Virus record (IMG/VR): IMGVR_UViG_2534681878_000029
From: a virus
Taxonomy: Duplodnaviria; Heunggongvirae; Uroviricota; Caudoviricetes
Strand: one strand, 5' to 3'
DNA: 27,110 nt
A model generated the notes under the pieces. That model searched no databases, was not told the origin of the DNA, and worked only from the letters and a program-made list of their open reading frames with translations. The position numbers and the translations under genes are program-made. Shown piece after piece: positions 3,987 to 26,210 of the stretch (positions are counted from its first letter, which is position 1; each line of letters opens with the position of its first letter).

Positions 3987-4196
<210 letters not shown>

Positions 4197-4203
4197 ATAA
4201 CCC

Positions 4204-4608: not shown

Positions 4609-4640
4609 GGTCATTACTGGATCTATCAACAGGAGTCATT

Positions 4641-5635: not shown

Positions 5636-5677
5636 TGAACCGCCCCGGGTTTCCTGGAGAGTGTTTTATCTGTGAAC

Positions 5678-6891: not shown

Positions 6892-6944
6892 CCTGTTTAC
6901 CTCTTTCTCAGGGAGTTTAGTCTCCAGGATTTCCGGGCGGTTCA

Positions 6945-8994: not shown

Positions 8995-9005
8995 CCTGAA
9001 TAAAA

Positions 9006-9419: not shown

Positions 9420-9445
9420 TCCTGCTTTTGTCAGGGAGATCTACC

Positions 9446-10000
9446 ATGCTTATTGGCTATGTACGTGTGTCAACAAATGACCAGAACACAGATCTACAAC
9501 GTAATGCGCTGAACTGTGCAGGATGCGAGCTGATTTTTGAAGACAAGATAAGCGGTACAAAGTCCGAAAGGCCGGGACTGAAAAAACTGCTCAGGACATT
9601 ATCGGCAGGTGACACTCTGGTTGTCTGGAAACTGGATCGGCTGGGGCGCAGTATGCGGCATCTGGTCATTCTGGTTGAGGAGTTGCGCGAACGTGGCGTT
9701 AATTTTCGCAGCCTGACGGATGCTATTGATACCAGTACCCCAATGGGGCGCTTTTTCTTTCATGTGATGGGGGCCCTGGCTGAAATGGAACGAGAACTGA
9801 TTGTTGAACGAACAAAAGCTGGACTGGAAGCTGCTCGCGCACAGGGACGAATTGGTGGACGTCGTCCCAAACTTACACCAGAACAATGGGCGCAGGCCGG
9901 ACGATTAATTGCAGCAGGAATTCCTCGCCAGAAGGTAGCGATCATCTATGATGTTGGTGTATCGACACTGTATAAGAAGTTTCCGGCCGGAGATAAATGA
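9446..10000 (+). CDS. pin: Serine DNA invertase of the Pin/Gin/Hin family
   Basis: 184 aa from the ATG at 9446 (SD AGGGAG at 9434-9439): MLIGYVRVSTNDQNTDLQRNAL...VVWKLDRLGRSM...GRIGGRRPKL...; resolvase N-domain with catalytic Ser and C-terminal HTH. Confidence 0.9.
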   Translation: MLIGYVRVSTNDQNTDLQRNALNCAGCELIFEDKISGTKSERPGLKKLLRTLSAGDTLVVWKLDRLGRSMRHLVILVEELRERGVNFRSLTDAIDTSTPMGRFFFHVMGALAEMERELIVERTKAGLEAARAQGRIGGRRPKLTPEQWAQAGRLIAAGIPRQKVAIIYDVGVSTLYKKFPAGDK

Positions 10001-10057
10001 AACCGTAGCACGTCGTATGCAAGATCGTGCTGCGGTTTATGCTTACCACTTGAAGAT

Positions 10058-10927
<870 letters not shown>

Positions 10928-11010
10928 CTAACCCTTTGAATTTACATAGCGCAAAAAGATACCTTTCCTCATAATGTGAGCTAATTTTATGTTTCGTTTG
11001 ATGATCGGGT

Positions 11011-11072
11011 CGGTCTCGAAAACCGGAGTAGGGGCAACTCTACCGGGGGTTCAAATCCCCCTCTCTCCGCCA
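11011..11072 (+). tRNA. Partial tRNA-Ser (anticodon CGA, serU-like), 3' ~62 nt only: att-site remnant, not a functional gene
   Basis: CGGTCTCGAAAACCGGAGTAGGGGCAACTCTACCGGGGGTTCAAATCCCCCTCTCTCCGCCA matches the 3' part of enterobacterial tRNA-Ser(CGA) from the anticodon stem onward; the 5' D-arm and acceptor strand are absent. Confidence 0.8.
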
Positions 11073-11654
11073 CTTTATCAATGACTTATCTCCCGACTTC
11101 CCGTCTTGCTTTTCCTAAACAGAACAATCGTAGAATATTCTTGAAGGGTTAGATCGTCACTGTTTTCTGTTCGATACTGTGACATTCAGCACTTGATTCG
11201 CTATGGATCTGACAGGAAGGTTTTGAGCGAAAATCTGCAGTTATTCAGTCGTTTTCTTATCGGTCACCATTATTCTTTTAGACATTGATCCTACAAAGCT
11301 GCCGTAAAGTTGGTGGTGGGAACTGAAGTTGCGTAGAGAAGGGGTCAATACCCGGAGGCAAACATGGGCTGGCAAAAGTGTAGCGGTATTAGGCGCAGCT
11401 ATTTAGCCTAGTTATGTTTTATGAAAACTTGATATCATATAAGTGTCTTACTTATTGGCTGTAAATAAGTTTTTCCTAAGGAATTGTTTCTTGAGTATCA
11501 TTTGTAACTGTAACGGAATTTATAATCCTTTGCTTTATTGTTACGGTATTTTTTATCACACCCTATTTTTAGTGGTTTTTTATACTGAAGTTTGGCAAAG
11601 TGAACTTTATATACATATACTTCATCCTGGTTTCAGTTAAATTGGGGGGATGAT

Positions 11655-12398
11655 ATGGCAACTACATGTTCAGTTATATTGATTTTGGAGTCCTTTGATG
11701 TTTATTTCGGAAAAGAGAGTGTGTTTCTGGAGAGAGGTTCATCTGTACTTGTCGACTCTAGCTCTAGAGATTTTTTCCTGACATATCCTGAAAGAGTGAT
11801 AGTGGCGGATTTTGGCGCTGAGTTTATTAGTCGCTATTTGAAAGCTAATAACTTAAGGGATATTTCTGATTGTAGGGAATATCCATCTTATTTAAAAATA
11901 AACTTTGCTGACTTCAGTTTAATTAAAGGATTAATTAGTTGGGCTAATCACTGTGCTGAATACATAGAAATTTTTGATGAGTCTATTGCTTTTACATGTC
12001 TCTCTGCATTTTCTTCTGAAAAACAATTTGGAGTATTTCTGTTTGGATGTTTGAAAAGCACAGGGGCTAAAGTTAAAACGATTATTCATACGGATTTATC
12101 TGCACCATGGCGTCTTAAGGATATATCATCAAGATTATATCTCAGCGAAAGTTTACTAAAGAGGAAATTGAAAGAAGAGGGGGTATCATTCAGTAAGATC
12201 ATACTTGATGAGAGGATGCAAATGGCTGAATATTTACTCAGCACTCGTTGTTATCCTATTAGTAAAGTAGCTAAGGTCTGTGGTTATGCCAGTGTCTCAT
12301 ACTTTACTTATGTATTTAGACGTTATTTTGGTGTTTCTCCAAGTCAATACTCTCAGAGGAGTTCAGAAAGTAAAATTCTTACTCACCAGGGAATCTGA
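11655..12398 (+). CDS. AraC/XylS-family transcriptional regulator (AppY/GadX-like)
   Basis: 247 aa, strong SD GGGGGGA before the ATG; N-terminus MATTCSVILILESFD resembles AppY (MDYVCSVVFICQSFD); C-terminal AraC-type HTH (...KVAKVCGYASVSYFTYVFRRYFGVSPSQY). Sits in an AT-rich segment. Confidence 0.8.
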   Translation: MATTCSVILILESFDVYFGKESVFLERGSSVLVDSSSRDFFLTYPERVIVADFGAEFISRYLKANNLRDISDCREYPSYLKINFADFSLIKGLISWANHCAEYIEIFDESIAFTCLSAFSSEKQFGVFLFGCLKSTGAKVKTIIHTDLSAPWRLKDISSRLYLSESLLKRKLKEEGVSFSKIILDERMQMAEYLLSTRCYPISKVAKVCGYASVSYFTYVFRRYFGVSPSQYSQRSSESKILTHQGI

Positions 12399-12439
12399 TC
12401 ATTGTTCTTGCCCCCTTATTTCCAGACAGGGGGGGTATC

Positions 12440-12805
12440 TTAAGTTAACGTTACCCGCTGACGTCGATATTCTCGCGGAGAGCGATAACCCAACGCACTG
12501 TGCGGATGGTTTTCATTGTAATGTTCGATCGCCACTGCAAGATTATGCAATGCCGTTCTTACATTCGGTTTCGGCATGAACGCGATGTAGTCTTCCTTCA
12601 TCGTTTTCACGAACCTTTCTGCAATTCCATTACTCTGAGGACTGCTGATTGCCGTTGTGCAGGGCTCCAGATTCAACTCTCTGGCGAACTGCCGTGTTTC
12701 ATGCGCTCTATACGCTGAACCGTTATCTGTCAGCCACTGGATGGACTGTTCCGGTACTTTATCGCCAAAGCGTTTTTCTATCGCTCCTAACATGACATCC
12801 TGCAC
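12440..12805 (-). pseudogene. IS3-family (IS2-group) transposase OrfB C-terminal fragment
   Basis: 121 aa ...[51 protein letters not shown]...[14 protein letters not shown] resembles the IS2 InsD C-terminus; no intact upstream catalytic domain or OrfA. Confidence 0.8.
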
Positions 12806-13152
12806 TGTCGCTTTATCGTAACCTCCCGTGCTTGCGGCCCAGTCTATGGCTTCACGATCGCAACAGTCCAGGGCGATTCATCTGGGCCAATCCTTGCTCA
12901 TAACAGGCATTCACTTCAGTCATGGCAGAAAGGTATGCATGCTGGAGAAGTCGTGAAAGAAAAGAAGACTGCTGCGCCGTTTGTCGTCACGTTTATCTTC
13001 ATTGGCTATGCAAGTCGTAATACAAGGTGGGACAAAACTGAGACACATAAGGCCTCGCAATGGCTTGCAAGGCTTTACATGTTTTGATGTGGTGGGACGT
13101 GTGAGCGCAGTGTTGATGGGGTAATGCTTTGAATTAGAAGCGGATTCTTATA

Positions 13153-13198
13153 ATTCGTAATGCGAAGGTCGTAGGTTCGACTCCTATTATCGGCACCA
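13153..13198 (+). tRNA. Partial tRNA-Thr (anticodon CGU, thrW-like), 3' ~46 nt only: attL core of the P4-like element
   Basis: ATTCGTAATGCGAAGGTCGTAGGTTCGACTCCTATTATCGGCACCA equals the 3' part of tRNA-Thr(CGU) from the anticodon loop; the upstream sequence is unrelated to the tRNA 5' half. Confidence 0.8.
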
Positions 13199-13360
13199 TC
13201 TCAACTTCCTCAAACGTCCGTATTAGTCCATAAAATCTCTGATTTATAACATTTTTTATTCTTTTAAGTCCATAGTAGTCCGTAACCATCCAGTAGAATC
13301 CGGTACTGAATGTGTATAGGATTGTGTATATGTTCCTGTTCGGTCTGGATTCCTATACAC

Positions 13361-14542
13361 ATGCCTTTAAACGATATGCAGATTCGCCGCGCTAAGCCTG
13401 AAGCTAAAGCCTATACATTTGGAGATGGGCTAGGGTTGTCATTACTTATAGAACCTAATGGAAGCAAGAGTTGGCGGTTCCGCTATCGCTATGCCGGCAA
13501 ACCCAAAATGATCTCGCTTGGTGTTTACCCAACGATCACCCTTGCCGATGCTCGTTCCCGTCGTGATGAAGCTCGAAAACTTGTGGCAGAAGGAAAGAAC
13601 CCTAGTGAGGTTCGAAAAGAGCAAAAGCTAGCTATGCAAACAGAGTCAGAGAACGCCTTCGAAAAGATAGCCAGAGAGTGGCATCAACTTAAATCTGCTA
13701 AATGGTCGGCGGGATATGCATCAGACATCATGGAAGCGTTTAAGAACGACATTTTTCCTTATGTCGGAACAAGGCCTGTGGGAGAGATTAAACCGCTAGA
13801 GCTGCTGAACGTTCTGCGTAAAATTGAGAAACGTGGTGCGTTGGAGAAAATGCGCAAAGTGCGGCAGCGTTGCTCCGAAGTGTTTCGCTACGCAATTGCA
13901 ACGGGTAGGGCGGAGTACAATCCTGCGGCTGATCTCTCCAGCGCTCTCGAAGTACACCAATCCAATCATTTCCCATTCCTAAAAGCTGATGAGATACCTG
14001 ATTTTCTACGTGCCTTAGAGGGTTACTCCGGGAGTAAGCTTGTCCAGATAGCCACGAAATTACTGATGATTACGGGTGTGAGAACCATCGAATTACGCGC
14101 GGCATTATGGCAAGAATTTGATCTGGATAACGCTATTTGGGAAATTCCTGCTGAAAGGATGAAAATGCGTAGGCCACATCTTGTGCCCTTATCATCTCAA
14201 GCGGTAGATTTACTCAATGAACTCAAGATCATGACAGGGAACTATCGTTATGTTTTTCCAGGGCGGAACGATCCGAATAGGCCAATGAGCGAAGCGAGTA
14301 TAAATCAAGCCATTAAGCGTATTGGGTATGGAGGAAAAGTCACTGGACATGGTTTTCGTCATACCCTTTCTACAATCCTGCATGAGCAAGGTTTTGAGAG
14401 TGCTTGGATTGAAATCCAGTTGGCTCATGTAGATAAAAATTCTATTAGGGGGACTTATAACCATGCTCAATATTTTAGTGGAAGGAAGTCTATGATGGAC
14501 TGGTACAGTAATTTGATATTTGAAAGACTAAAAAGGAGTTAA
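13361..14542 (+). CDS. int: P4-type tyrosine integrase (IntA/IntS-like, DUF4102 N-domain)
   Basis: MPLNDMQIRRAKPEAKAYTFGDGLGLSLLIEPNGSKSWRFRYRYAGKPK... with the C-terminal R...HGFRHT...Y catalytic signature; directly downstream of the tRNA-Thr fragment. Start moved to the ATG at 13361 because the track extension overlaps an inverted repeat. Confidence 0.9.
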   Translation: MPLNDMQIRRAKPEAKAYTFGDGLGLSLLIEPNGSKSWRFRYRYAGKPKMISLGVYPTITLADARSRRDEARKLVAEGKNPSEVRKEQKLAMQTESENAFEKIAREWHQLKSAKWSAGYASDIMEAFKNDIFPYVGTRPVGEIKPLELLNVLRKIEKRGALEKMRKVRQRCSEVFRYAIATGRAEYNPAADLSSALEVHQSNHFPFLKADEIPDFLRALEGYSGSKLVQIATKLLMITGVRTIELRAALWQEFDLDNAIWEIPAERMKMRRPHLVPLSSQAVDLLNELKIMTGNYRYVFPGRNDPNRPMSEASINQAIKRIGYGGKVTGHGFRHTLSTILHEQGFESAWIEIQLAHVDKNSIRGTYNHAQYFSGRKSMMDWYSNLIFERLKRS

Positions 14543-14545
14543 TTT

Positions 14546-14962
14546 GTGTCTCAACCACTTTCGGAAATATTGACATGGGATGATGAACAATGGGAGGTAT
14601 TTGTCCATGATTGGCTTATTGTCTGTAAATCAGATGATTACCCGTGGAGCGAACGTTTGGGAGGAGCTGGAGATAAAGGTAGAGACGTTGTTGGATATAA
14701 ATCGGATCCTAACGTAGAAGGTTATTCTTGGGATAATTATCAATGCAAACTGTACAAAAAAAGTTTAGGGTTCTCTGATGTTGTAGTTGAGTTTGGAAAA
14801 CTTATCTATTTTACTCTGAATGGTGATTATCCCATCCCTCAGAAGTACTTTTTTGTGGCACCCTATGATTTATCTACTACATTTTCTAATTTATTGAAAA
14901 ATAAAAACGAGCTTAAAAAAGCAGTCCTTGATTCATGGGATTCAGCAATTTCAAAAAAATAA
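14546..14962 (+). CDS. Mrr-like PD-(D/E)xK nuclease-domain protein (candidate effector, N-terminal part)
   Basis: GTG start 4 nt after the int stop with SD AAGGAG at 14533-14538. Motif GGAGDKGRDVVGY ... YQCKLYKK (residues 39-72) matches the Mrr_cat pattern g-DgG-D ... QcK. AT-rich. Confidence 0.6.
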   Translation: MSQPLSEILTWDDEQWEVFVHDWLIVCKSDDYPWSERLGGAGDKGRDVVGYKSDPNVEGYSWDNYQCKLYKKSLGFSDVVVEFGKLIYFTLNGDYPIPQKYFFVAPYDLSTTFSNLLKNKNELKKAVLDSWDSAISKK

Positions 14963-15552
14963 CTAAAAAGATTGATATTCCATTAGATGATGAAATAAAA
15001 AAATATATTGAGGATTTTGATTTTAGTATTTTTTACTCTCTACCCTTATCATTGATTTTAAATGATATTGCAAATACACACCTTTATTTTAAGTACTTTA
15101 ACGAGCTGTATGTCGTGAGAATCCCTCCAAATGAAATTCCAACATACAATTCAAAAAAAGAGTCTGTATATGTTAATGCACTGCTTCAAGCCTATTCAGA
15201 GCATGGAAATAAAACTTATAGTTCTTTCTTAGAGCTTGATGATCCATACAGACGACACTTTAATAATAGTAGAAATGATTTTTATTTTGCATCTTCGCTT
15301 GAGGTTTTTGTCCGCGAAGTATTTAAAGATGATGTATTCAAAGCATTGAAATGTTACATTTCATCTTCAATTGAACCCGTCTTTTATGAAGACCATAATT
15401 ATGCATTTATTAGGTGTAATGCAGTCTTGAAGCAGGCTGTTCTGACACCAATTGCACATTCAGTACTATCAAAAATATGTGAAGCAAATGATAAAAAAGG
15501 AATATGCCATCATTTGGTTAATGATGGTGAAGTAATTTGGACGGTGAGATAA
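14935..15552 (+). CDS. Hypothetical protein; possibly the C-terminal continuation of the preceding ORF via -1 frameshift at an A7 run
   Basis: 205 aa ORF overlapping the previous one by 28 nt in the -1 frame; the overlap contains AAAAAAA (14953-14959) followed by the 0-frame stop; no recognisable motif. Confidence 0.5.
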   Translation: MGFSNFKKITKKIDIPLDDEIKKYIEDFDFSIFYSLPLSLILNDIANTHLYFKYFNELYVVRIPPNEIPTYNSKKESVYVNALLQAYSEHGNKTYSSFLELDDPYRRHFNNSRNDFYFASSLEVFVREVFKDDVFKALKCYISSSIEPVFYEDHNYAFIRCNAVLKQAVLTPIAHSVLSKICEANDKKGICHHLVNDGEVIWTVR

Positions 15553-16010
15553 TGGTTAGAATTTATAATTCAAGTTTAGAAGTGGCATGTCGAATGGCGA
15601 AAGTGCTCGTCGCTATTTATCCTTCTTCATTAAGCCTTGAACGGCTTATTTGTTTTGATTTTATTTTAGTAAATCTTAAGGATTTTTTACCTGAAGAGAT
15701 TAGTCTTCATCCTCCAATACCCCGTAGAGATGCTCAGTTAGCCCTAAAACGAGAGATTGTTTTAGAATCATTGGCTTTGTTGCAAGGCTATGAACTAGCC
15801 TCAAAAATTTATACACATCGTGGTTTTGTATATAAAGCTTCTGAAAAAACATATGCATTTACAAATTCTCTACATAATGAATATGTTGCGCAGATGGAGC
15901 ATAATATAAATTTGGTGGTTAAGTTATATAGTGATATTCCTGATGAGCAGTTGCAATCAATTATAAAAAATAAAATTGGCAAATATGATATGGAATTTAA
16001 TTATGAATGA
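15552..16010 (+). CDS. Hypothetical small protein (middle component)
   Basis: 152 aa from the ATG at 15552, overlapping the upstream stop as TAATG (translational coupling); no recognisable motif. Confidence 0.5.
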   Translation: MVRIYNSSLEVACRMAKVLVAIYPSSLSLERLICFDFILVNLKDFLPEEISLHPPIPRRDAQLALKREIVLESLALLQGYELASKIYTHRGFVYKASEKTYAFTNSLHNEYVAQMEHNINLVVKLYSDIPDEQLQSIIKNKIGKYDMEFNYE

Positions 16011-16635
16011 CAATTTTTTTACGTTCAGAAAAATAAAGGTAACCGGATTCAATAAATTAGATGCTATAATTGAATTTGGTTCTAAATTGACTATTTTATA
16101 TGGTGGTTCTGACTCTGGAAAAACATACATATATTATTTGATTCGATATTTATTAGGGAGTGAAAAACTAAAAAATAAAGATATCGATCATGCTCAAGGT
16201 TATGATTTAGCCTATCTGGAATTTAATTTTCAAGGTAGGGTAATGACAATTGAGAGGTCTCTTCAGGATAGCGCCCATTACAGATTATATGATTCGAGCA
16301 TTGAAAATGTTAGTGAAGCTAATCTGTTGATGGTTTTTTCCAAAAGTGCTTCGTCTAAAAAGAGTTTTTCATCATACTTTTATGGTAGGTTGAATTTCAA
16401 AGAGGCTAAAGTAAGAACAAACTTAAGTAATACTCTTCATAAATTTAATCTTAATAATGTTTTTGAATTTTTTTGTATTGATGAATTAAGAGTGTTAACT
16501 GAGAAGTCGTTAATTCTTTCTGATATTCCTAGCGAGGAGACAAAAAGAAAGTCTGAATTTAAATTCCTTTTAACTCAGAGAGATGATACTAACTCCTTAG
16601 CAGAAAAACCAAATAAAAAAGCAAGATATTTTTAA
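15985..16635 (+). CDS. ABC/SMC-like ATPase, N-terminal head with Walker A
   Basis: FRKIKVTGFNKLDAIIEFGSKLTILYGGSDSGKT: the SMC/RecF/RecN-type N-terminal strand followed by P-loop GGSDSGKT (nt 16102-16125). Start uncertain (ATG 15985 or 16003). Confidence 0.6.
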   Translation: MIWNLIMNDNFFTFRKIKVTGFNKLDAIIEFGSKLTILYGGSDSGKTYIYYLIRYLLGSEKLKNKDIDHAQGYDLAYLEFNFQGRVMTIERSLQDSAHYRLYDSSIENVSEANLLMVFSKSASSKKSFSSYFYGRLNFKEAKVRTNLSNTLHKFNLNNVFEFFCIDELRVLTEKSLILSDIPSEETKRKSEFKFLLTQRDDTNSLAEKPNKKARYF

Positions 16636-16665
16636 AAAAATCAAATTGCAAATATTTATGAGGAA

Positions 16666-17256
16666 TTGAAAGCGCAATTAATTTATCCTGAATATGATCA
16701 AGTCATTGTTTCAAGAGAACTTGAGAAAGTAGAGCAAGATATTGAATCATCGAAAGATATATTGAAAGGTATTGTTGATGCACTTGATGATAAGAAGCAA
16801 TTATTAAAAGAGTTAAGTGATGAATTATATTCAATCAGTGACAGGGAAAAATACTTATCATTACTCATTGAAAGATTTAGTCTTCTTAAAGACCAATACT
16901 TTATAGATCTACAAAGAATAGATGTTGTATCACAGGCGAATTTCTATTTAAATAATTTTGCAGATATTTATTGTGAGTTCTGTAATACACCGCAAAAAAA
17001 AGAAAATGAAATATCATATGATGATTGTTTTTTGTCGTGTAATGCAGAAAAATTGAAAATCAAAAGCCAGCTGAAAGGATTAATTGAATCAATCGGATCT
17101 AATGTTCGCGAACATGAATTAATTATGTTAAGAAAAAATGATGTTAATGAAATTTATCAATCAGAAAAAAGTGATTTTAAGACGTTAGAAGATAAAAATA
17201 TAAAACAATACATTCATCTCTTGAATCACTTTATGAATATAAAGACAATCTTTTAA
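16666..17256 (+). CDS. Coiled-coil segment, same frame as the preceding ORF and separated from it only by a single TAA
   Basis: 196 aa rich in heptad-like K/E/L/I repeats; the track start is TTG with no convincing SD; in frame with 15985-16635 across the TAA at 16633-16635. Confidence 0.5.
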   Translation: MKAQLIYPEYDQVIVSRELEKVEQDIESSKDILKGIVDALDDKKQLLKELSDELYSISDREKYLSLLIERFSLLKDQYFIDLQRIDVVSQANFYLNNFADIYCEFCNTPQKKENEISYDDCFLSCNAEKLKIKSQLKGLIESIGSNVREHELIMLRKNDVNEIYQSEKSDFKTLEDKNIKQYIHLLNHFMNIKTIF

Positions 17257-17822
17257 TGGATCACACAAAACATAGCATTCTATCTTCATTACAAGATAAA
17301 GAAGATGATGTTGACGAACTTAAATACTCCGCCGAGGACTTTGACTCCTTAACAGTAGCTGATTTGTATGATATAGAAATAGCGATGCAAGACTTTTTGA
17401 ATGATATAAATTTTGAAAATTCTAAAGATAACAAAGTGCGATTTGACGAAGATACATATGACTTTAATATCAATGGGAAACGCCGAGGAATGTTTGGTAA
17501 AGGTACCCGTGCAGTAATGCATGCTATATTTACCATTTGCTTTGCGGAATTTTTATCAAGAAAAGGGAATCCATTCATTGGATTTGTTGTGCTTGATAGT
17601 CCATTAGTGACGCACTTTGATAAAGATAGAGGGGGTTCTCTATCGGATGTTAATAGCGTCAGTCTCAGTGATTCATTTTATCACGCATTAATCAAAAGGG
17701 ACTATAATTTCCAGATTGTAATTCTTGAGAATAAAGGTCCGACGTTCCAAATAAAAATTAATGATGCAAATAAAATCCATAACTTAAATAAGAATGGAAG
17801 CTCTGGTTTTTATCCTGTTTAA
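17256..17822 (+). CDS. ABC/SMC-like ATPase, C-terminal head with signature-like and Walker B motifs
   Basis: ...RRGMFGKGTRAVMHAIFTICFAEF (signature-like region) followed ~20 aa later by IGFVVLDSP (Walker B-like hhhhD); ATG overlaps the upstream stop as TAATG. Confidence 0.55.
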   Translation: MDHTKHSILSSLQDKEDDVDELKYSAEDFDSLTVADLYDIEIAMQDFLNDINFENSKDNKVRFDEDTYDFNINGKRRGMFGKGTRAVMHAIFTICFAEFLSRKGNPFIGFVVLDSPLVTHFDKDRGGSLSDVNSVSLSDSFYHALIKRDYNFQIVILENKGPTFQIKINDANKIHNLNKNGSSGFYPV

Positions 17823-18231
17823 TACATTAAAAATATAACTGCTAATTGGGGTGCTCGAAATTATATTTCGTTTCGAGCGCTCAGTTCATTTCTAAATAAT
17901 TTGCAAAATTATTTTGGGTACTTTCGCCTCTACACTTCCTTCGGGTGGTTCCACAATAATGGATCTCACCGGCGTTTGATATTTTATAATCTAACCCCTT
18001 AGCGCGCGCAGCCCCCCACGCCTGCTCGCTTCGCTTAACAGACTGGTTTTCATGCATTCCGCAAATCGTCTCAGAAGCCACCACACAAGGGCTTTCGCGT
18101 CAAAAATGGTGCATGAGAATCATGCGTTTTCATGCGCTATAGACATGCACTCATGCGCTCTCAGGCCAGCCAGGGAAAAGGCGTAAAAAATCCCAGTACT
18201 GGACCGGGATTACGTGGGCTTTTTTTGCTAA

Positions 18232-18504
18232 TCAGACAGGAATTTGCTGACGGCTTGACAGCTTTGACGCGGAGCCATAGCGATTGAGAGTTTGCTGTTG
18301 TTTTTCCGGCATTTGTGCTTTCTCTGATTCCTGTTCATTGCGCCGGGGCTTCATGATTATCGTATCCACACTTTCCAGTGCGGTAAATGTGTAGGAACAT
18401 TCAAGATTCTGGCACTGATACCATGAGCGTTTAACCGATGGTGCTTCATAGGCGGAGGTTCTGGCGTGTGCCGTCGTACCGCATTCGGGACATTTAAGTG
18501 CCAT
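18232..18504 (-). CDS. Ogr/Delta-family zinc-finger late-gene transcriptional activator
   Basis: MALKCPECGTTAHARTSAYEAPSVKRSWYQCQNLECSYTFTALESV: the CxxC...AHARTS...QCxNxxC...TF pattern of P2 Ogr / P4 Delta. Confidence 0.85.
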   Translation of the reverse strand: MALKCPECGTTAHARTSAYEAPSVKRSWYQCQNLECSYTFTALESVDTIIMKPRRNEQESEKAQMPEKQQQTLNRYGSASKLSSRQQIPV

Positions 18505-18509
18505 TAATA

Positions 18510-19061
18510 TTACTCCTGCATGCCGTTAATGTAATCCAGACGTTGCTGAAAGCGCAGTTGTTGTGCAGGGGTGTAAGAGCTCTGGCAATCACGAACCATC
18601 ATGGGGTCAGGCATCACACCGGATTCATCCAGAATCATACGATAATCCCCGGCAATTTCAGGCGGTGTTATTGCCAGCTGGCGAACCAGAGCATTGCGTA
18701 ATATACGGGACGCAACGTCAACCCCTCCGCGCCCCTTCAGGAACGGAGCCAGTGCAGATGTCAGGGCTGCTCCATTCGCCTGCATAAAATTGCTGAGAGC
18801 GTCTTCTGTGCAGGCCTCCATCAGTTGATGCTGCGAGTAAATGCATTCGCGCGCAGCACAGTTAATTTGCCATTTCAGCACATCCAGATGTTCCCGCTGT
18901 AATTCGAGCTGTCGAGCATAATCTGCTGGTTTTTCCATGGCAGTGAGGAGTGATTCTATCTGTTGTTCAACGGCTTTTCGGCTCTCACTATGTCCAGCCC
19001 ACAGAATACGGGCATTTCTAAAACTGATAAGCGCTTGGTCTGGAGTGACTCGGGCCATCAT
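18510..19061 (-). CDS. psu: Psu-like protein (P4 polarity suppression / capsid decoration family)
   Basis: 183 aa; shares recalled P4 Psu motifs (KWQ[IV]N, HG[AT]ALA[AS]ALAP, TPAQ); co-oriented with the sid-like gene as in P4. Confidence 0.7.
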   Translation of the reverse strand: MMARVTPDQALISFRNARILWAGHSESRKAVEQQIESLLTAMEKPADYARQLELQREHLDVLKWQINCAARECIYSQHQLMEACTEDALSNFMQANGAALTSALAPFLKGRGGVDVASRILRNALVRQLAITPPEIAGDYRMILDESGVMPDPMMVRDCQSSYTPAQQLRFQQRLDYINGMQE

Positions 19062-19810
19062 ACTGCTTTCTCCTTCTCAGCACGTTCCTGACGAACCTTC
19101 ATTTTATGCATAGCTGCTGGAGAGAGTTTATTACTGAAATCCAGACGGGCCGCATAATCCGGGGCAACTCCCGCCAGTTTAAACACGGGGTCCTGTTCGG
19201 GCATCGCATCGTTAGTCAGAGCCGGTCTGGTGATATGTTTATGAATAAAATCTTTCAGCAGTGTGTCCGGGTCATTAACTGAATGCACCACACCGACAAC
19301 TGCGCTGGCTTCCCTGCCCATTGTTGATTTGAGCAGGCTTAGTGTCTGGATTAGTGCTTTTCCATGCGACTGCATAAAATCTTCCCAGATTTGTTTTGCG
19401 CGAATACCCACAAGGGTGTCGTGCGCGTGGATATACTTTCCGGCTAATTCCGCAGCCTCCTGCGGCAAAAGTGCATTTTCGCTTTCCTGAGCCGCCAGCA
19501 GCTCATCAAAATCCTCAAGCGTTTCTCGTCCCAGCGCAATTTCCGTGCGCAGTTTTTTCATTTCCTTTGAGACTACGCCCTGACTTTCACGAAATAGCGT
19601 GCGCCACTCCTCATTCAGGGCGTTCGTCGTGGCTTCCATTTCAGCGCGGCGCTGGCGGATTGTCGCAATATTATCCGCTGCCGCTTTTTGCTGACGACGT
19701 GCTTCAAGCCATGCAGATTTGGTGGCATTCACTTTCTCAAGCGCCTGTTGCGTCGAAACAGGGATAGAAATTTCAACGATCGGGTTATTGTTCTGTTCTG
19801 GGATTGTCAT
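19058..19810 (-). CDS. sid: Sid-like external scaffold protein (P4 capsid size determination family)
   Basis: 250 aa, Ala/Glu/Gln-rich helical protein upstream of psu in the same operon, divergent from the alpA/primase operon; resembles what I recall of P4 Sid (e.g. EEWRTLFRESQGVVS). Confidence 0.7.
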   Translation of the reverse strand: MTIPEQNNNPIVEISIPVSTQQALEKVNATKSAWLEARRQQKAAADNIATIRQRRAEMEATTNALNEEWRTLFRESQGVVSKEMKKLRTEIALGRETLEDFDELLAAQESENALLPQEAAELAGKYIHAHDTLVGIRAKQIWEDFMQSHGKALIQTLSLLKSTMGREASAVVGVVHSVNDPDTLLKDFIHKHITRPALTNDAMPEQDPVFKLAGVAPDYAARLDFSNKLSPAAMHKMKVRQERAEKEKAV

Positions 19811-19975
19811 GTCAGCACCTAGTGGTTTGTCGTGGTGTCAATTGTGCTGTGATGCATACAAAGCTGCCATTGAACGCCATTGTGCGAGCGACAAGACAAA
19901 GACTGAACCGCCCCGGACCTCTTTTGGCTAGCCAGAAAAGGCCTCGTTTAACTAAGGCTGTTTCAGACTTACCTT

Positions 19976-20196
19976 AACTATTCACTACTATTCACTTAGG
20001 TAAAAAAAATAGGTAATACAGAAGGTTATAAGGTGAAGGGTTGGCATGGCAGTATTCATCGACTGTTCATAACTGTTCACATGGGAATAAAATTATTTAT
20101 GGTATTTTTTCATAATGGGTGGTTTTTTTATTCCTCGTAGCTATTTGTTTTTTGCTCCTCACCACTATTCACCCTTATTCAGGAGTATTCAACAGG
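19976..20196. repeat. Cluster of ~9 degenerate octamer repeats T(A/G)TTCA(C/T): putative primase-binding iterons (P4 crr/ori-like)
   Basis: AACTATTCACTACTATTCAC (19977-19995), TATTCATCGACTGTTCATAACTGTTCACATGG (20053-20084), CACTATTCACCCTTATTCAGGAGTATTCAAC (20163-20193). P4 ori/crr use TGTTCACC-type octamers. Confidence 0.5.
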
Positions 20197-20743
20197 CACA
20201 TAAATAGACTGCATGTTTTTGCCGGGGAATAACATTTTCGCCTCTGGCCATGGTGTTGCATTTCATACTGATTTTTATAAAACTAGATCTGTCCGGTTCT
20301 TTATGGATTCATTCGGATATATTTTACGATTTAAGGTGATGTTATTTAATATCAAGGTTTTTATGCAGGCCCAATGTTTATAAGTTGGATGCGATTCAAA
20401 AATATGCCCGGAAATTGGGGCCTGCAATGCAAGGCCTCGTGTAGAAGTTGTACTGCCTTGCTGTATTGGCGGTGGGGTTAGCACTATCAGGTGCAATGAC
20501 CCATAGGATAGTAAACCCTGGGTGAATGGTAGTTCCTATTAATGCTCCTGTATTTATAGTCCGCAGGCATGGTATTTATTATGTCATTTTATATGGTTTA
20601 ATCGGGCTTTAAATTCCATAAAATCAATATGTGACGCTAAATAAAAAATGCGTGCGCAGGTGGTTTATATACACATAATAAGGAACTACCTGAACCCGGA
20701 TAAATTCATCCGGACTGTTGTGGAAATTAAAGAGGGTAGATAA

Positions 20744-21004
20744 ATGCGTAATATTTCTGTGTCTGCGCCAGCTCCTGCTGCGCCATTATTTCCTGTATCG
20801 AACCATCATGAGCGATTTTTACGCCTGCCTGAGGTGATGCACTTATGCGGGTTGTCCCGTTCGACCGTTTACGACCTGATCAGCCGCGATGCGTTTCCGA
20901 AGCAGATCCCGCTTGGCGGTAAAAATGTCGCCTGGGCACAGTCTGAGGTCAGCGCATGGATGGCGGACCGCATCAGCGCCCGTGGGCGGGGATGTGATGC
21001 ATGA
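20744..21004 (+). CDS. AlpA-family DNA-binding regulator (prophage excisionase/regulatory HTH)
   Basis: 86 aa; [52 protein letters not shown] is the AlpA/MerR-like HTH signature found in P4-like and CP4-57-like elements. Confidence 0.8.
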
Positions 21005-21554
21005 TGATACCTGCATACATTAAATACCTTTATTCTGGCTTGCTTACTGTCGTCATTTCCAGGTATAGTTTTTCCGCTGTCGCAAAATCGGCAGCCGGAA
21101 TTGGCGTTCCGTATAACTTATTGGCGACAATTGACGCCCCTTGCGTCTTTTTTTACGTCGTAGCTCAGGCACAACCATTTTCAGGGCTGTGGTGTTTATG
21201 CTTACACCATGGTTCTATCGAGATAATGGTAGTCCGGGCGGGGCAGCCTTCGGGCTGGCCGGTTTCCAATAAGGCCGGTTACGCCAACCCCGTTCGGGCT
21301 GCCACCAGTGAAATTGGCGTTTCCGGTGGTAGCAATAACCGCTACTTATTGGAGGCTGCCATCATGGCTACAATCCTCACCCCGTCACACCCGCAATATG
21401 TCTTTGTGTTTGCCGCAATCCGCCGTGCTGACACTCACCCCCGCATCTGTATGCTTCGCACTGTCTCCTGCGATGAGCGTTCCGCGCGCCGTTTGCTAGT
21501 CCGAGATTATGTACTCTCCCTTTCTGCACGGCTGCCTGCCGGGGAGGTGACGCT

Positions 21555-21776
21555 ATGAACCAGTTTGAGATTTCCTACGACGATGTTGTAAGGCTGAAAC
21601 ATTTACGCAATGTGGGTGAGTATGTAACTGGCATGGCAGTCCTGCAGGACTGTTATGAAAAGCCAGCAGGTGCCCAATGCGAACAACTGGTTTCCCTCAT
21701 TTATCTGATGACAGAGCAACTGGATGGAGTGGTGCAACGCTGCCATGACGACCTGATGAATGCGGAGGTGGCCTGA
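21555..21776 (+). CDS. Hypothetical small protein of the P4-like early operon
   Basis: 73 aa, ATGA start/stop overlaps with both neighbouring ORFs, co-oriented with the primase; no motif recognised. Confidence 0.45.
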
Positions 21777-22099
21777 TGATATGCTGTGAATCTCTTCTGG
21801 CACTTCGTGCCGCTCTGTATCGCCGTGCCGTTGCCTGTGCCTGGCTGGCTCTAAGCAATCATCAGGAACGTTATTCCGGCCTGACGCTCGCTGAACTTGA
21901 AGATGCCATAGCCCGCGAGCTGGAAGGGTTCTATCTGCGCCAGCATGGGCAGCAAAGAGGGCTGGAAATTGCCTGCGCGTTGCTTTCGGATCTGATGGAG
22001 TCGGGGCCGCTTAAAGCCTGTCCGGTTCTCTCACTGCTCGGAATGACGGTCATGGATGAACTTTGTTCCCGTCACCTCAACAAACCAGCGCTGCACTAA
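21776..22099 (+). CDS. Hypothetical small protein of the P4-like early operon
   Basis: 107 aa, coupled to the upstream ORF (TGATGA overlap) and ends 13 nt before the primase ATG. Confidence 0.45.
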
Positions 22100-22112
22100 G
22101 GAGGGCCGCACA

Positions 22113-24446
22113 ATGTCAGGAATGAAAGTTAGCCAGGCTGAGAAAGCAGCTCGGGGTCACTGGTCAAGAATTTTACCTGCGCTGGGCGTAAATGTACTGA
22201 AAAATCGGCACCAGCCCTGCCCGGTCTGTGCCGGGAAAGACCGCTTTCGATTTGATGACCAGGAAGGGCGGGGAACGTGGTTCTGTAACCAGTGCGGGGC
22301 AGGTGATGGCCTGGCGCTTGTAAGTAAAGTACTGGATGTAGGCATTAGTGAAGCGGCAGACAGAATAAACGGCATTATCGGAAACCTGCTGCCAGTATCT
22401 CAGGGAATGCTTGAATCTGGTTCTCCTGAAAAAGAGGACGGGAGAAAAGCTGCAGCAGTGCTGGCTGCCCGTTTGTTTGATAAGTCCCGCCAGACCACTG
22501 GCAATGCCTATCTGACGAGTAAAGGGTTTCCTGCACTGCCTTGCCGGGAATTAACCGCTATGCATAAAGTCGGTGGTGTGGCATTTCGCGCGGGAGATCT
22601 TGTCGTTCCATTGTATGCAGATGGAGAGCTGGTAAATCTGCAGTTAATCAACGCTAATGGGGGCAAATGCTTCCTTAAAGGCGGTCAGGTTAAGAATGCC
22701 TTTTACCTGGTTGAAGGTACTGCCAAAGCAGCCAAACGGCTCTGGATAGCGGAAGGATATGCCACCGCACTTACTATCAACTATCTGACTGGCGATGCTG
22801 TCATGGTGGCCTTTTCGTCCGTCAATTTCCTTTCCCTGGCGAGCATTGCCTGCAGTGAGTACCCAACGCACCAGATAATTATTGCTGCTGACCGCGATCT
22901 CAACGGTGCGGGGCAAACAAGGGGCGCAGCTGTTACCGGGGCCTGCAATTGCACAATGGCGCTCCCGCCTGTGTTTGGTGACTGGAACGATGCATTCACG
23001 CAAAACGGCGAAGAAGCCACCCGGCATGCAATTCATGAAGTAATAAAACCAGCTGTTGCCAGCCCCTTCGACACAATGAGCGAAGCTGAATTTACCGCGC
23101 TGAGCGTCAGCGAAAAAGCGCAGAGGGTAGTGGATCACTATAAAAATTCACTGGCAGTAGACCCGAACGGGCAGCTCCTTTCATGCTATGAGGCGGGGGC
23201 CTGGAAAGTTATCTATTACGCCGATTTTGCCCGTGATGTCGCTGCGCTGTTTCAGCGCCTCGACGCACCTTTTTCATCCGCGAAAATTGCGTCTCTCGTG
23301 GAAACCCTCAAACTGATCGTTCCGCAACAGCAGAATCCGGCGCGGCAACTTATCGGATTTCGCAACGGTGTGCTCGATACCCGGACAGGATTGTTCAGCC
23401 CGCACGATAAGAAGCACTGGTTACGTACGCTGTGCGAGGTGGATTACACGCAGCCCGTTGACGGTGAGTCACTGGAAACCCATGCCCCGGCATTCTGGCG
23501 CTGGCTGGATCGTGCCGCAGGTTTTAATCCTGAAAAACGGGACATTATTCTGGCTGCATTGTTTATGGTGCTGGCTAACCGTTATGACTGGCAGCTGTTT
23601 CTGGAGGTCACTGGCCCTGGCGGAAGTGGAAAGAGTATTCTTGCTGAAATAGCAACCATGCTGGCGGGTGAAGATAACGCGACCTCGGCAACCATTGAAA
23701 TGCTTGAGTCGCCAAGAGAACGAGCTGCGTTAATAGGTTTTTCACTGATTCGACTTCCCGACCAGGAAAAGTGGAGCGGTGACGGGGCCGGACTAAAAGC
23801 CATCACTGGCGGCGATGCGGTATCCGTTGATCCCAAATATCAGAACGCCTATTCAACCCACATCCCGGCGGTCATCCTGGCTGTGAACAATAATCCGATG
23901 CGCTTCACTGATCGTAGTGGTGGAGTTTCACGCCGAAGGGTGATCCTGCATTTCCCCGACCAGATAGCCCCGGAGGAACGCGATACCCAGCTCAAAGAGA
24001 AAATTGCCAGTGAGCTAGCGGTGATTGTTCGCCAGCTTATGCAGCGTTTCAGCGACCCAATGAGTGCCAGGACATTGCTTCAGTCACAGCAGAACTCCGA
24101 TGAAGCGCTCACCATCAAACGTGATGCTGATTCAGCTTTTGATTTTTGCGGCTACCTTGAGGTCCTACCTGACACCACGGGCATGTTTATGGGGAACGCT
24201 AATATTGTTCCACGTCAGCCTCGAACTTACCTCTACCATGCCTATCTGGTCTACATGGAGGCTAACGGCTATAAAAATACGCTCAGTCTGACCATGTTTG
24301 GCAAGGGGCTACCGTTAATGCTCAAGGAATATGGGCTGCAGTATGAGAAACGACGGACCAATCAAGGAATGCAGACTAATCTGGCCCTAAGAGAGGAAAG
24401 CAATGCTGACTGGTTGCCAAAATGCGATGAGTTTGCAGCGAAATAA
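22113..24446 (+). CDS. P4 alpha-like primase/helicase (zinc-binding domain, TOPRIM primase, D5-like SF3 helicase)
   Basis: 777 aa from the ATG at 22113 (SD AAGGAGG at 22099-22105). N-terminal CPVCAGKDRFRFDD...WFCNQCG zinc ribbon; Walker A GPGGSGKS in the C-terminal helicase; same length as P4 alpha. Confidence 0.9.
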   Translation: MSGMKVSQAEKAARGHWSRILPALGVNVLKNRHQPCPVCAGKDRFRFDDQEGRGTWFCNQCGAGDGLALVSKVLDVGISEAADRINGIIGNLLPVSQGMLESGSPEKEDGRKAAAVLAARLFDKSRQTTGNAYLTSKGFPALPCRELTAMHKVGGVAFRAGDLVVPLYADGELVNLQLINANGGKCFLKGGQVKNAFYLVEGTAKAAKRLWIAEGYATALTINYLTGDAVMVAFSSVNFLSLASIACSEYPTHQIIIAADRDLNGAGQTRGAAVTGACNCTMALPPVFGDWNDAFTQNGEEATRHAIHEVIKPAVASPFDTMSEAEFTALSVSEKAQRVVDHYKNSLAVDPNGQLLSCYEAGAWKVIYYADFARDVAALFQRLDAPFSSAKIASLVETLKLIVPQQQNPARQLIGFRNGVLDTRTGLFSPHDKKHWLRTLCEVDYTQPVDGESLETHAPAFWRWLDRAAGFNPEKRDIILAALFMVLANRYDWQLFLEVTGPGGSGKSILAEIATMLAGEDNATSATIEMLESPRERAALIGFSLIRLPDQEKWSGDGAGLKAITGGDAVSVDPKYQNAYSTHIPAVILAVNNNPMRFTDRSGGVSRRRVILHFPDQIAPEERDTQLKEKIASELAVIVRQLMQRFSDPMSARTLLQSQQNSDEALTIKRDADSAFDFCGYLEVLPDTTGMFMGNANIVPRQPRTYLYHAYLVYMEANGYKNTLSLTMFGKGLPLMLKEYGLQYEKRRTNQGMQTNLALREESNADWLPKCDEFAAK

Positions 24447-24455
24447 CTGACCTAA

Positions 24456-24476
24456 GACCGGCTGTGCCGGTCTTAA
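24456..24476. terminator. Perfect 9-bp stem hairpin AAGACCGGC-TGT-GCCGGTCTT between convergent genes (candidate bidirectional terminator)
   Basis: Inverted repeat 10 nt after the primase stop; no strong U-tract on either side, so function as an intrinsic terminator is uncertain. Confidence 0.4.
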
Positions 24477-24578
24477 ATCCGCTACAGGAAATTATCTCAA
24501 AATATATATCGATAAAATTTAAAAGTTATATGCTAAGGCGTCAGCGGAAAATGCATCTAATTCATTGTTAGATGATGT

Positions 24579-25535
24579 TTATTTTTGAATTGATTTAAAC
24601 ATCCCATCGAGTTGTAATTTATTTATGTCGGTTTTCTTTATGGCTTTAATTAAGTTTTCAATAACTTCCAAAGAAAAAATTACATCTTTCTTTTCAATTC
24701 TAACCCCCCCGTGGTGGCTGCAAGCATTAAGGATGTCCTTTGTAATTTCAACATCATTTTTCATTAATGGTTCATAGTCCAGAGCCTCAATAACAGAAAC
24801 TAAACTACCTAGCATTTGCTCTTGGTATTGAACGTTGTTTAAATGCATTATACGAATATTAACAAGCATGAGAATATATTCTAAATATCTCCTGGCAGTA
24901 TTTCCTTTCTCTTGTAAAGAATCACGATCATATTCCTCAATACTCATGACTTCATTATGTAAAGAGGCTATTTTGTGCTCTGCTAATGAAATATTTATCG
25001 CATCCATGAGGTTTCGTGAGAAGCCTGTAGATGTAACATGACCATTTGCGGGCCTTGTTAAAATACATGTAGTATAGCAATTTATATTTGGGGTCTGGAT
25101 TGTCTCATTTACTCTTTTAACCGTTCTATAAACGTCTACCATATAAGAACCTGAGTTTTCAAATGAACATGAAGAGCATTTTGTATTATATATTCTATTT
25201 AGAGATAACTGATTGTGATAGTATCCCTTTAAGAAAGCATATATAGTGTCATTAAACTCGACAAACACAACGGACTCAATATATATATGGAATTTATCAT
25301 TGGGGTGCCACTCTAATTCAAGTCTTCTTGTAGAGTCATCAAAGGAAAAGTTTGAAATAAAATCCCAGTTACCTAAATCTATAAAATCAACGATATTTCT
25401 ACCTGCACCATGGATATTTTTATTTATTAAAGTTGTGATTGAGTTTTTTATAATGTCCCAATCATGAATTTCATGATCGAATTTATTATTGATGGTTTCT
25501 TTTATTTGATTGGAAAAGTTTGAATAACTAGTCAC
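24579..25535 (-). CDS. Hypothetical AT-rich cargo protein in the second variable region of the P4-like element
   Basis: 318 aa, Asn/Ile/Lys-rich, much lower GC than the flanking primase gene; no recognisable catalytic motif by eye. Confidence 0.6.
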   Translation of the reverse strand: MTSYSNFSNQIKETINNKFDHEIHDWDIIKNSITTLINKNIHGAGRNIVDFIDLGNWDFISNFSFDDSTRRLELEWHPNDKFHIYIESVVFVEFNDTIYAFLKGYYHNQLSLNRIYNTKCSSCSFENSGSYMVDVYRTVKRVNETIQTPNINCYTTCILTRPANGHVTSTGFSRNLMDAINISLAEHKIASLHNEVMSIEEYDRDSLQEKGNTARRYLEYILMLVNIRIMHLNNVQYQEQMLGSLVSVIEALDYEPLMKNDVEITKDILNACSHHGGVRIEKKDVIFSLEVIENLIKAIKKTDINKLQLDGMFKSIQK

Positions 25536-25833
25536 TTGTTAGCCTCAAAATTAATAATGAGTATTAAAATTTAATTGATATTGTCTATAAAATGTAGCGA
25601 TGCAATTTTATTGCAACGAAATGATTTTTACAACATACCATTATCGCTAAACAAAATCGCACCCATCAAATCAACTTACGTTACAATCACTACAAAGCGA
25701 TTGCATTTAAATTCAAAACAGTTTTCTGTTGGGCGCATTTTTTGTTGTACTGGACTAAAGAGAAAAAATGGGGTAAGGAACAAATACCTTCCGTGCTCAA
25801 AAATTAGGTTTTTATGCACTTATTAATCAGTCA

Positions 25834-25853
25834 AGGTGAACAGTAAAGTGTTC
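25834..25853. promoter_or_regulatory. Inverted pair of TGTTCAC octamers (GTGAACA-gtaaag-TGTTCAC): putative primase-binding/origin-like site
   Basis: Same octamer family as the 19976-20196 cluster, arranged as a dyad. Confidence 0.35.
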
Positions 25854-26067
25854 ACTTCTTATCAATCGTTAATTTCATATCTTTTTGAATATTAATGAAA
25901 AAAAACACAATGAGTAGTATGAACAGTTTTCCCCCAAAAAAAGTTTTTTCTGCCTTGAGAATGCGCGGAAAGCGAACGCCTTCACCAATGTGTATAGGGG
26001 TGTGTGTAGTTTAAATCTTCTATTTTAATTTATGTATTAAAATCATTGTGTTGGTGGCGATTATTGG

Positions 26068-26085
26068 TTCCTATTATCGCACCAT
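26068..26085 (+). repeat. attR-like direct repeat of the tRNA-Thr 3' core (17/18 nt, one G deleted)
   Basis: TCCTATTATCGCACCAT versus TCCTATTATCGGCACCAT at 13181-13198; delimits a ~12.9 kb element. Confidence 0.55.
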
Positions 26086-26210
26086 TTAAATCAAGTAGTT
26101 ACCCCATATTTAAATACACCACGTTTCCTCCTGTGCCGCATTTGTGCCATTGTAACCCTGGCAATTAATCAAAATACTGTTCTGACATCAGGCAATGCAG
26201 GTGCAGACAT

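Follow-up and report, generated by a model that had tools for sequence, protein, structure and literature searches.

A P4-like satellite prophage with a decayed Lamassu locus in a tandem array at thrW of Escherichia coli O157:H7

The DNA analysed here is a 27,110-nucleotide (nt) viral record (IMGVR_UViG_2534681878_000029; Caudoviricetes), called the window below, which carries a P4-like satellite prophage next to the remnant of a lambdoid phage. From position 12000 to its end at 27110 the window is 100% identical to many chromosomes of Escherichia coli O157:H7, and about 305 of 5,426 complete E. coli genomes cover at least 80% of that part, all of them O157:H7 or O55:H7 and all at 99% identity or more. 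With a probability that we would put at roughly 90%, positions 13199-26085 (12,887 bp) form a complete P4-like satellite prophage, the one published as Sp2 of the O157:H7 strain Sakai, which Asadulghani et al. (PMC2669165) described as a P4-like prophage with an ogr homologue. The Sakai element has the same sequence without differences, and the length that we calculate fits its published description. Hayashi 2001 reportedly lists Sp2 at about 12.9 kb, and we take CP-933I of EDL933 to be the same element. The genes of its core are the following (lengths in amino acids, aa; ORF, open reading frame):

13361..14542, plus strand: int, P4-type tyrosine integrase, 393 aa (Pfam Arm-DNA-bind_3, Phage_int_M and Phage_integrase, the last PF00589 at 1.6e-25)
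18232..18504, minus strand: ogr/delta late-gene transactivator, 90 aa, one zinc-finger domain (PF04606 Ogr_Delta, 1e-16, full profile)
18510..19061, minus strand: psu, polarity suppression and capsid decoration, 183 aa (PF07455, 4.8e-42, profile 2-177/182; phrog_6366, 1.4e-76)
19058..19810, minus strand: sid, capsid size determination, 250 aa (phrog_6165, 5.3e-96)
20744..21004, plus strand: alpA/vis, excisionase and regulator, 86 aa (PF05930 Phage_AlpA, 1.2e-19)
21001..21558, plus strand: Ash/Icd-like ORF in the immunity region (PF10554 Phage_ASH, 4.8e-30; 68% identity to the P4 cI ORF)
21555..21776, plus strand: 73-aa ORF, common in P4-like elements and absent from P4 (phrog_10110, 4.2e-42)
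21776..22099, plus strand: cnr/orf106 homologue (DUF5375), 107 aa (Pfam DUF5375, 1.7e-49; 71% identity to P4 orf106)
22113..24446, plus strand: alpha primase-helicase, 777 aa (Zn_Ribbon_Prim, Toprim_3, D5_N, DUF5906 and Pox_D5; phrog_2249, 2e-219)

Moura de Sousa and Rocha (PMC8628076) define P4-like elements by seven components, and all seven markers are found here at full length and within 11 kb, as in a 'Type A' element. For Sid, we judged the marker by PHROGs and by blastp to P4 Sid rather than by those authors' custom profile; their 'Epsilon' marker is equated with the Ash family (PF10554). The proteins range widely in their identity to P4 counterparts: alpha is 72.5% identical (PF03288, 1.2e-17), AlpA 63% to orf88 (Vis), the ogr/delta product 41% to the N-terminal domain of delta, Int 38% over its full length, Psu 31%, and Sid 23%, also over its full length (blastp E 7e-11). 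Int is equal in length to the integrases of related satellites in Pantoea alhagi and in the assembly SRR1122541.

The first-pass annotation of this DNA had proposed a P4-like satellite from its ogr, psu, sid and alpha homologies. These hold up both in profile searches and against P4 itself, and are joined by an Rfam match to the C4/CI RNA; the gene content and order that it gave (int, cargo, ogr-psu-sid on the minus strand, alpA, small ORFs, alpha, cargo, att repeat) is reproduced by our annotation. Of the two departures from P4 that it had listed, the psu-ogr order does differ, as a variant known in the family, where psu and delta are swapped in about 20% of elements (PMC8628076). The AlpA-like regulator, however, is no departure, since P4 carries the AlpA-family orf88, and alpA is a core marker of the P4-like family in the same paper. 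That paper also reports, between epsilon and alpha, a 75-aa ORF found in 61% of P4-like elements and absent from P4. The element as a whole is thus ordinary and already known, and its supposedly unusual features are documented family variants.

A P4-type integrase beside a tRNA fragment, AlpA and AT-rich cargo are features shared by many genomic islands, and homologues of the 318-aa cargo gene described below also occur in non-satellite islands, as might be expected if this were no helper-dependent satellite but a CP4-type cryptic prophage or some generic tRNA-associated island. Given that sid, psu, ogr/delta, alpha with its iterons, a C4 RNA and a cos-like site are present in the P4 order, along with seven of seven markers, we regard this explanation as extremely unlikely.

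RefSeq annotation of the same region in strain 9000 runs from proA and tRNA-Thr (thrW) through a truncated integrase and lambdoid remnant, an AraC regulator and an insertion sequence (IS) fragment to the tyrosine integrase, ABC-3C proteins, ogr, psu, a 'septation initiation protein' and a helix-turn-helix regulator, and then to an Icd-like gene, DUF5375, the primase-helicase, a hypothetical gene and a LysR regulator. The 'septation initiation protein' corresponds to the sid homologue at 19058-19810: its RefSeq name is apparently a confusion, as the profile and P4 comparisons point to capsid size determination. GC content is 28-32% in both cargo regions and 50-53% in the core.

The ends of the element lie in the following features:

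13153..13198, plus strand: 3' fragment of thrW, exactly the last 46 nt of this tRNA-Thr; attR of the upstream Sf-type remnant Sp1
13182..13199, plus strand: attL core repeat TCCTATTATCGGCACCAT, a 17/18 match to 26069-26085
13311..13361: P' arm-type repeats TGTGTATAG at 13311 (plus), 13323 (plus) and 13353 (minus), putative integrase arm-binding sites from a motif search
25989..26009, plus strand: P arm-type repeats TGTGTATAGGGGTGTGTGTAG, copies at 25989 and 26001, from a motif search
26069..26085, plus strand: attR core TCCTATTATC-GCACCAT, 17/18 against 13182-13199, with one G deleted

ARAGORN finds no complete tRNA anywhere in the window because position 1 falls just beyond the gene: the intact thrW, as placed in an identical O157 genome, stops 15 nt short of it. 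An Sp1-type lambdoid remnant occupies positions 1-13152, and the array therefore reads thrW, Sp1 remnant, 46-nt fragment, satellite, 17/18 repeat, chromosome. It had been noticed earlier that only the 3' 46 nt of the tRNA gene are present, without the 5' half, and tandem islands at thrW had been suggested on that basis; the fragment is an exact match, and the intact gene just upstream of the window, with the Sp1 remnant lying between it and the satellite, bears the suggestion out. The truncated integrase of Sp1 (1-975, minus strand) shares 99% identity with its counterparts in the Shigella phages SfII, SfIV and SfI and 97.7% with the SfV integrase, and phages of the SfII/SfIV/SfI type integrate into thrW through a 46-bp att (PMC3851460); this identifies the 46-nt fragment as the attR of Sp1. 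The satellite shares the last ~17 nt of the fragment as its own attL core, and the first 29 nt (13153-13181) belong solely to the att site of the neighbouring prophage. The bounds first proposed, 13153-26085, thus stand on the right but not on the left, where the satellite begins at 13199.

A synthetic junction joining the 3' end of thrW to the sequence from 26086 onward is contiguous over 134 nt in E. coli C (99.3% identity), at a single genomic place over an annotated tRNA-Thr, which is an empty site. The same junction is covered to at least 80% in about 2,590 genomes, some of them at unannotated or second places that may be att-like copies. In the simplest history, the satellite would have come first, inserted by its P4-type tyrosine integrase at the thrW 3' end, and an Sf/P22-type lambdoid phage (Sp1) would later have inserted into the reconstituted thrW, leaving its 46-bp attR between the two elements.

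The right-hand repeat had been called degenerate. The 17/18 match is confirmed, but the idea of degeneration is not: the satellite in the Logan assembly SRR1122541, a distant relative from a different host, has an attR core with the same 1-nt deletion (cgactcctattatc-gcaccat), and the imperfect core is therefore a conserved, attP-derived feature. For the same reason we rejected the missing G as a decay lesion behind the failure to excise. The imperfect core would place strand exchange on the right-hand side of the missing G, within about 7 bp (GCACCAT). In the P. alhagi and Logan satellites, the attL core sequence lies inside an intact thrW directly upstream of a homologous int with the same P' arm, and the arm repeats next to int and those at the same distance from attR are both kept in the SRR1122541 satellite; the annotated arm repeats of the P4 attP have an arrangement similar to that of the repeats flanking the two Sp2 cores. 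These results carry a caution for boundary calling, as an imperfect att repeat may be a conserved property of an integrase family and not a sign of immobility. As a separate observation, the chromosomal sequence to the right of attR (26086-26110) resembles phage-derived sequence that follows the intact thrW at the Sp1 junction (L001 5300-5330); the Sf-type attP arm seems to carry a relic of a thrW downstream region.

Between the genes lie the signals expected of a P4 relative:

17997..18056, minus strand: cos-like region, core GGCGTGGGGGGCTGCGCGC at about 18021-18003, placed as in P4, beyond the end of the late operon
19977..20190, plus strand: ori-like iterons ACTRTTCAY, about 7 copies, paired, with 10-nt spacing; blastn match to P4 ori 9311-9418
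21063-21115: a1b1 target (Rfam c4-a1b1, 44.6 bits, just under the gathering score of 46.7)
21076-21153: isrK-like RNA (Rfam, 71.9 bits, gathering score 50)
21222-21309: C4/CI antisense RNA (Rfam C4, RF01695, 84 bits, gathering score 45)
25836..25925: crr-like repeats GGTGAACAG/TGTTCAC at 25836 (minus), 25849 (plus) and 25919 (minus), placed as P4 crr between alpha and att

Together the C4, isrK and a1b1 matches indicate that P4-type RNA immunity is present. The isrK match (21076-21153) lies within the immunity leader, has its own terminator and overlaps the a1b1 target of the C4 RNA, which suggests that IsrK of Salmonella and its family belong to one RNA type with the P4 immunity leader. TGTTCAC-type repeats had already been seen in the divergent region, and they are indeed clustered there: TGTTCAC/TATTCAC occurs six times in 19979-20172 against about 0.14 copies expected by chance (Poisson P about 8e-9). 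The sid-alpA intergenic region in which they lie is 933 nt long, compared with about 550 nt in P4, and the roughly 540 nt past the iterons (20200-20743) hold only short unconserved ORFs. Repeats similar to the crr-like ones follow alpha in the SRR1122541 satellite.

Downstream of ogr, the minus strand of the cos-like region reads TGCATGAAAACC-N8-AAGCG-N9-GGCGTGGGGGGCTGCGCGCGC, a block that resembles the flanks of P4 cos; at the equivalent place, P4 has TGCATTAAAACC-N7-AAAGCG-GGCG followed directly by GGCGAGGCGGGGAAAGCACCGCGCGC. The block is kept in four satellites with different cargo and hosts, and its conservation ends where the cargo starts. A blastn search with the P4 cos region gave chance matches only. 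Compared with a phage collection, the ogr-to-cargo spacer gave only matches of E about 0.1 to unannotated DNA of Burkholderia phage records; most of these fall within about 300 nt of the record end, where cos is expected.

The first cargo region, between int and the cos-like site, contains these genes:

14546..15552, plus strand: lmuA pseudogene, effector with an ABC-3C CTD6 domain, split into 138-aa and 205-aa ORFs
14546-14962: first lmuA ORF, PADLOC LmuA profile 10-140/336 (9e-41)
14935-15552: second lmuA ORF, PADLOC LmuA profile 141-333/336 (3.9e-44)
15552..16010, plus strand: lmuC, ABC-3C middle component 2, 152 aa, intact (Pfam MC2, 5.4e-30; PADLOC LmuC, 2.9e-36)
16003..17822, plus strand: lmuB pseudogene, SMC-like ABC ATPase, split into three ORFs
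16003-16635: first lmuB ORF, PADLOC LmuB profile 3-199/610 (1.3e-49)
16666-17256: second lmuB ORF, PADLOC LmuB profile 231-412/610 (1.6e-21)
17256-17822: third lmuB ORF, PADLOC LmuB profile 428-608/610 (5.1e-37)

Judged from its reading frames, this is a Lamassu system, lmuA-lmuC-lmuB, inactivated by three point lesions: the LmuA, LmuC and LmuB components are adjacent, as in a Lamassu gene set, and not all of them are encoded by intact ORFs. The lesion in lmuA is a 1-nt deletion at 14955/14956, where the DNA alignment has TCAAAGAAAATAA in the SRR1122541 satellite against TCAAA-AAAATAA here; the intact 335-aa LmuA of that satellite reads through the break. In lmuB, a T to A change at 16634 creates TAA at 16633-16635, a codon that specifies Leu in the intact proteins and is TTA in O55:H7 DEC5B, and a 1-nt deletion in an A-run at 17193 is the sole indel relative to the Proteus gene. 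Intact 606-aa LmuB homologues are found in Proteus mirabilis (87% identity) and P. alhagi (75%).

Two of these three lesions fall within A-runs, so that slippage could still yield some full-length protein, lmuC is intact, and the cargo has been retained since before the split of O55:H7 and O157:H7, all of which would fit a functional split-gene or slippage-dependent variant of Lamassu. We consider such a variant highly improbable: relatives at 75-90% identity encode single ORFs of 335 and 606 aa, the remaining lesion is a plain TAA nonsense codon that slippage would not repair, and sublineages carry different extra frameshifts, the pattern of neutral decay. In the O55:H7 strains lmuA is split in the same way, the nonsense codon is missing and there are extra indels peculiar to them, and TW14359 (NC_013008.1 317084-320559) has a further lmuB frameshift. 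The cargo is confined to 308 E. coli genomes, all at 99% identity or more, and no intact allele occurs within E. coli among these 308 carriers, with split genes in every sampled strain. The locus is therefore a case of progressive neutral decay, kept as a pseudogene cluster since before the O55:H7/O157:H7 split.

According to a 2026 survey (PMC13586616), less than 1% of the pseudogenes in P4-like satellites resemble defence genes, defences being swapped before they decay. The decayed Lamassu locus is an exception to that rule and fits an element that no longer moves; it provides both a documented counter-example and a dated case of defence decay in a clinically important clone. In intact Lamassu systems, LmuB/LmuC senses DNA ends or phage replication origins and then releases the LmuA effector (PMC12663957). 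The Vibrio cholerae system DdmABC described there follows the same three-gene plan of ABC-3C systems, in which a middle component and an SMC-like ABC ATPase accompany an effector that carries an ABC-3C domain at its C-terminus. Unlike DdmABC, whose effector domain is a Cap4 nuclease, the LmuA found here carries a GDKGRD...YQCK motif that, on inspection of the motif only, suggests a PD-(D/E)xK nuclease; the N-terminal effector domain has no Pfam match, and sequence searches of the PDB found no relative for LmuA or LmuB.

The second cargo region holds a single gene:

24579..25535, minus strand: intact ORF encoding 318 aa, member of an uncharacterised protein family; flanked by the alpha terminator and the crr-like repeats

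This slot corresponds to the primase-att position, a minor hotspot that holds 7% of P4 defence systems, and only 1% of the P4-like satellites with complete defence systems use more than one hotspot (PMC13586616). The 318-aa protein has no match in Pfam, PHROGs, PADLOC or NCBIfam and no sequence-level match to a HEPN family; a profile search of PDB sequences returned nothing, as did Pfam on ten longer family members, and Foldseek against the PDB returned nothing significant. Homologues of conserved length occur in Enterobacterales and Aeromonas, with 152 cluster representatives in a profile search. Their surroundings look mobile or like islands: one lies next to a DNA methyltransferase, ArdC and a type I restriction-modification system in a region resembling a plasmid or an integrative and conjugative element, another belongs to a variable islet of Proteus, and a further E. 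coli has one at thrW, adjacent to a P4-type integrase.

AlphaFold2 predicts an N-terminal alpha/beta domain and a C-terminal helical domain (predicted local distance difference test, pLDDT, 88.6; predicted template modelling score, pTM, 0.84). In this model the C-terminal domain is HEPN-like, with the four-helix HEPN fold. Across 50 diverse family members D58, R215, E219, H274 and G277 are invariant and N270 and S273 nearly so, which gives a conserved pattern of R215-x3-E219 and N270-x2-S-H274. No Arg lies 4-6 residues before H274, and the protein thereby appears to differ from the HEPN toxins and abortive-infection RNases (HEPN/MNT, RnlA, Csm6) with their canonical Rx4-6H motif; no antitoxin partner is evident for the gene. 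Going by the model, we tentatively raise the possibility, which we hold to be somewhat doubtful, that the gene represents an undescribed single-gene anti-phage family, acting by abortive infection or as a toxin, in which a sensor-like alpha/beta domain is combined with a non-canonical HEPN RNase. Such a family may travel both with P4-like satellites, at their minor alpha-att hotspot, and with mobile elements of other kinds, and it would be a candidate for defence screens.

By homology with P4, the parts described so far would work together as follows. The C4/CI antisense RNA would silence the element, and a P2-like helper would turn on the late operon sid-psu-ogr. Excision would be the work of AlpA/Vis and Int, crossing over within the final ~7 bp of the att core (GCACCAT), and replication from the iteron ori and crr would fall to alpha. 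Helper capsids would be remodelled by Sid and Psu, and the helper terminase would cut the cos-like site. The two hotspots would hold cargo that benefits the host, with Lamassu between int and cos and the HEPN-like gene between alpha and attR.

Several observations weigh against taking this element for a complete satellite. Comparison with the P4 proteins finds no homologue of the 95-aa epsilon, the helper derepressor, or of orf151, the lack of epsilon agreeing with PMC2669165, and no match to gop, beta or cII either. A search with the P2/P4 19-mer, allowing up to three mismatches, found no canonical P2/P4/186 cos, and the cos-like site agrees with the P2 19-mer at 12 of 19 positions in an ungapped comparison. 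A 91-mer covering the cos-like site is single-copy in each O157 genome, with no second, helper-borne copy, and thus no helper is identified in O157; a plausible reading of the block is a diverged cos that some helper would recognise. The satellite integrase is annotated as N-terminally truncated in TW14359, and with the further lmuB frameshift of that strain this indicates that decay of the element goes on within O157. Finally, in the experiments of Asadulghani et al. Sp2 did not circularise, replicate or become packaged, whether or not mitomycin C was given, and Sp13, the only P2-like prophage of Sakai, proved to be defective (PMC2669165). The present-day mobility of Sp2 is therefore unproven.

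The same failure to circularise, replicate or be packaged, together with the truncated integrase, the defective Sp13, the three Lamassu lesions with further, different ones in O55:H7 and TW14359, and the restriction to a single clonal lineage (some 305-310 carriers among 5,426 genomes, each at least 99% identical), would also fit a fixed, decaying remnant that does not excise or transfer under any condition and looks intact in its core because it was inactivated recently. We take this possibility seriously but lean against it. Every core ORF is full length relative to P4 and to relatives in other genera; the attR imperfection is conserved in the family and is no lesion; and the element still has its arm sites, iterons, immunity RNAs and cos-like block. 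P4-type prophages are induced by helper functions and not through SOS, so the negative mitomycin C result is no proof of a dead element, the assays being no test of helper-dependent induction. We therefore prefer to see a P4-like satellite with an intact-looking core that in O157:H7 is quiescent and probably stranded for want of a competent helper; the combination of non-excision, Lamassu decay and a truncated integrase in one lineage points to a stranded element.

To the left of the satellite, window positions 1-13152 form an Sp1/CP-933H-type lambdoid remnant. Apart from the truncated Sf-type integrase it retains CI/Cro/CII, replication genes in broken form and a tail-fibre module that includes pin; a GIY-YIG gene, an IS fragment and, at 11655-12398, an AT-rich AraC regulator are also present. 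The Sf phages that its integrase resembles (SfII, SfIV, SfI) are serotype-converting phages of Shigella. Two inverted copies of IS629/IS1203, at 1447-2660 (plus strand) and 5678-6810 (minus strand), each contain an ALIL frameshift pseudoknot (Rfam, 121.5 bits); strain 9000, otherwise identical, has a single copy there. The Pin-invertible tail-fibre segment at 7511-9389 has the opposite orientation to that of strain 9000 (99.8% identity, reverse strand), which implies that a site-specific inversion switch has flipped between the isolates.

Four points are absent from the published description of Sp2: the Lamassu pseudogenes, the HEPN-like cargo, the conservation of the imperfect attR and the derivation of the 46-nt fragment from an Sf-type phage. 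They are incremental new details on a known element. P4 itself (NC_001609) shares the whole layout, att-int-hotspot-cos-late operon-ori-vis/alpA-CI RNA-cnr-alpha-crr-att, as well as the TGTTCAC-type iterons and a C4-type immunity RNA. The two differ in the late operon, which is sid-psu-ogr in Sp2 and sid-delta-psu in P4; in delta, a single 90-aa domain in Sp2 and 166 aa in P4; and in the integration site, thrW in Sp2 and leuX in P4. In addition, the cos core of Sp2 has diverged, its Int, Psu and Sid are just 23-38% identical to their P4 counterparts, and it has the extra 73-aa ORF as well as a second cargo gene between alpha and crr.

The satellites of P. alhagi (CP019706) and Logan SRR1122541 share with Sp2 the thrW site, int length, sid-psu-ogr order, core set and core gene lengths. 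Both carry the same type of Lamassu in the same slot with an intact lmuB (606 aa), have an extra 72-aa ORF after alpA, and adjoin an intact thrW with no interposed prophage. In the SRR1122541 satellite lmuA is intact as well (335 aa), and about 290 nt without a gene separate alpha from attR. The satellite of E. coli 1368KP has 88% identical core DNA and lies at leuX with a different integrase; it carries Hachiman (HamA and a helicase) in the first slot and has no annotated counterpart of the 318-aa gene after alpha. The two variable cargo regions proposed by the first-pass annotation are thus real: their contents differ in the 1368KP and SRR1122541 satellites, and each of the two slots is a P4 hotspot known from the literature (PMC13586616). 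In about 300 other genomes the ogr-psu-sid module is all that is shared with Sp2, at about 92% identity, which shows modular recombination.

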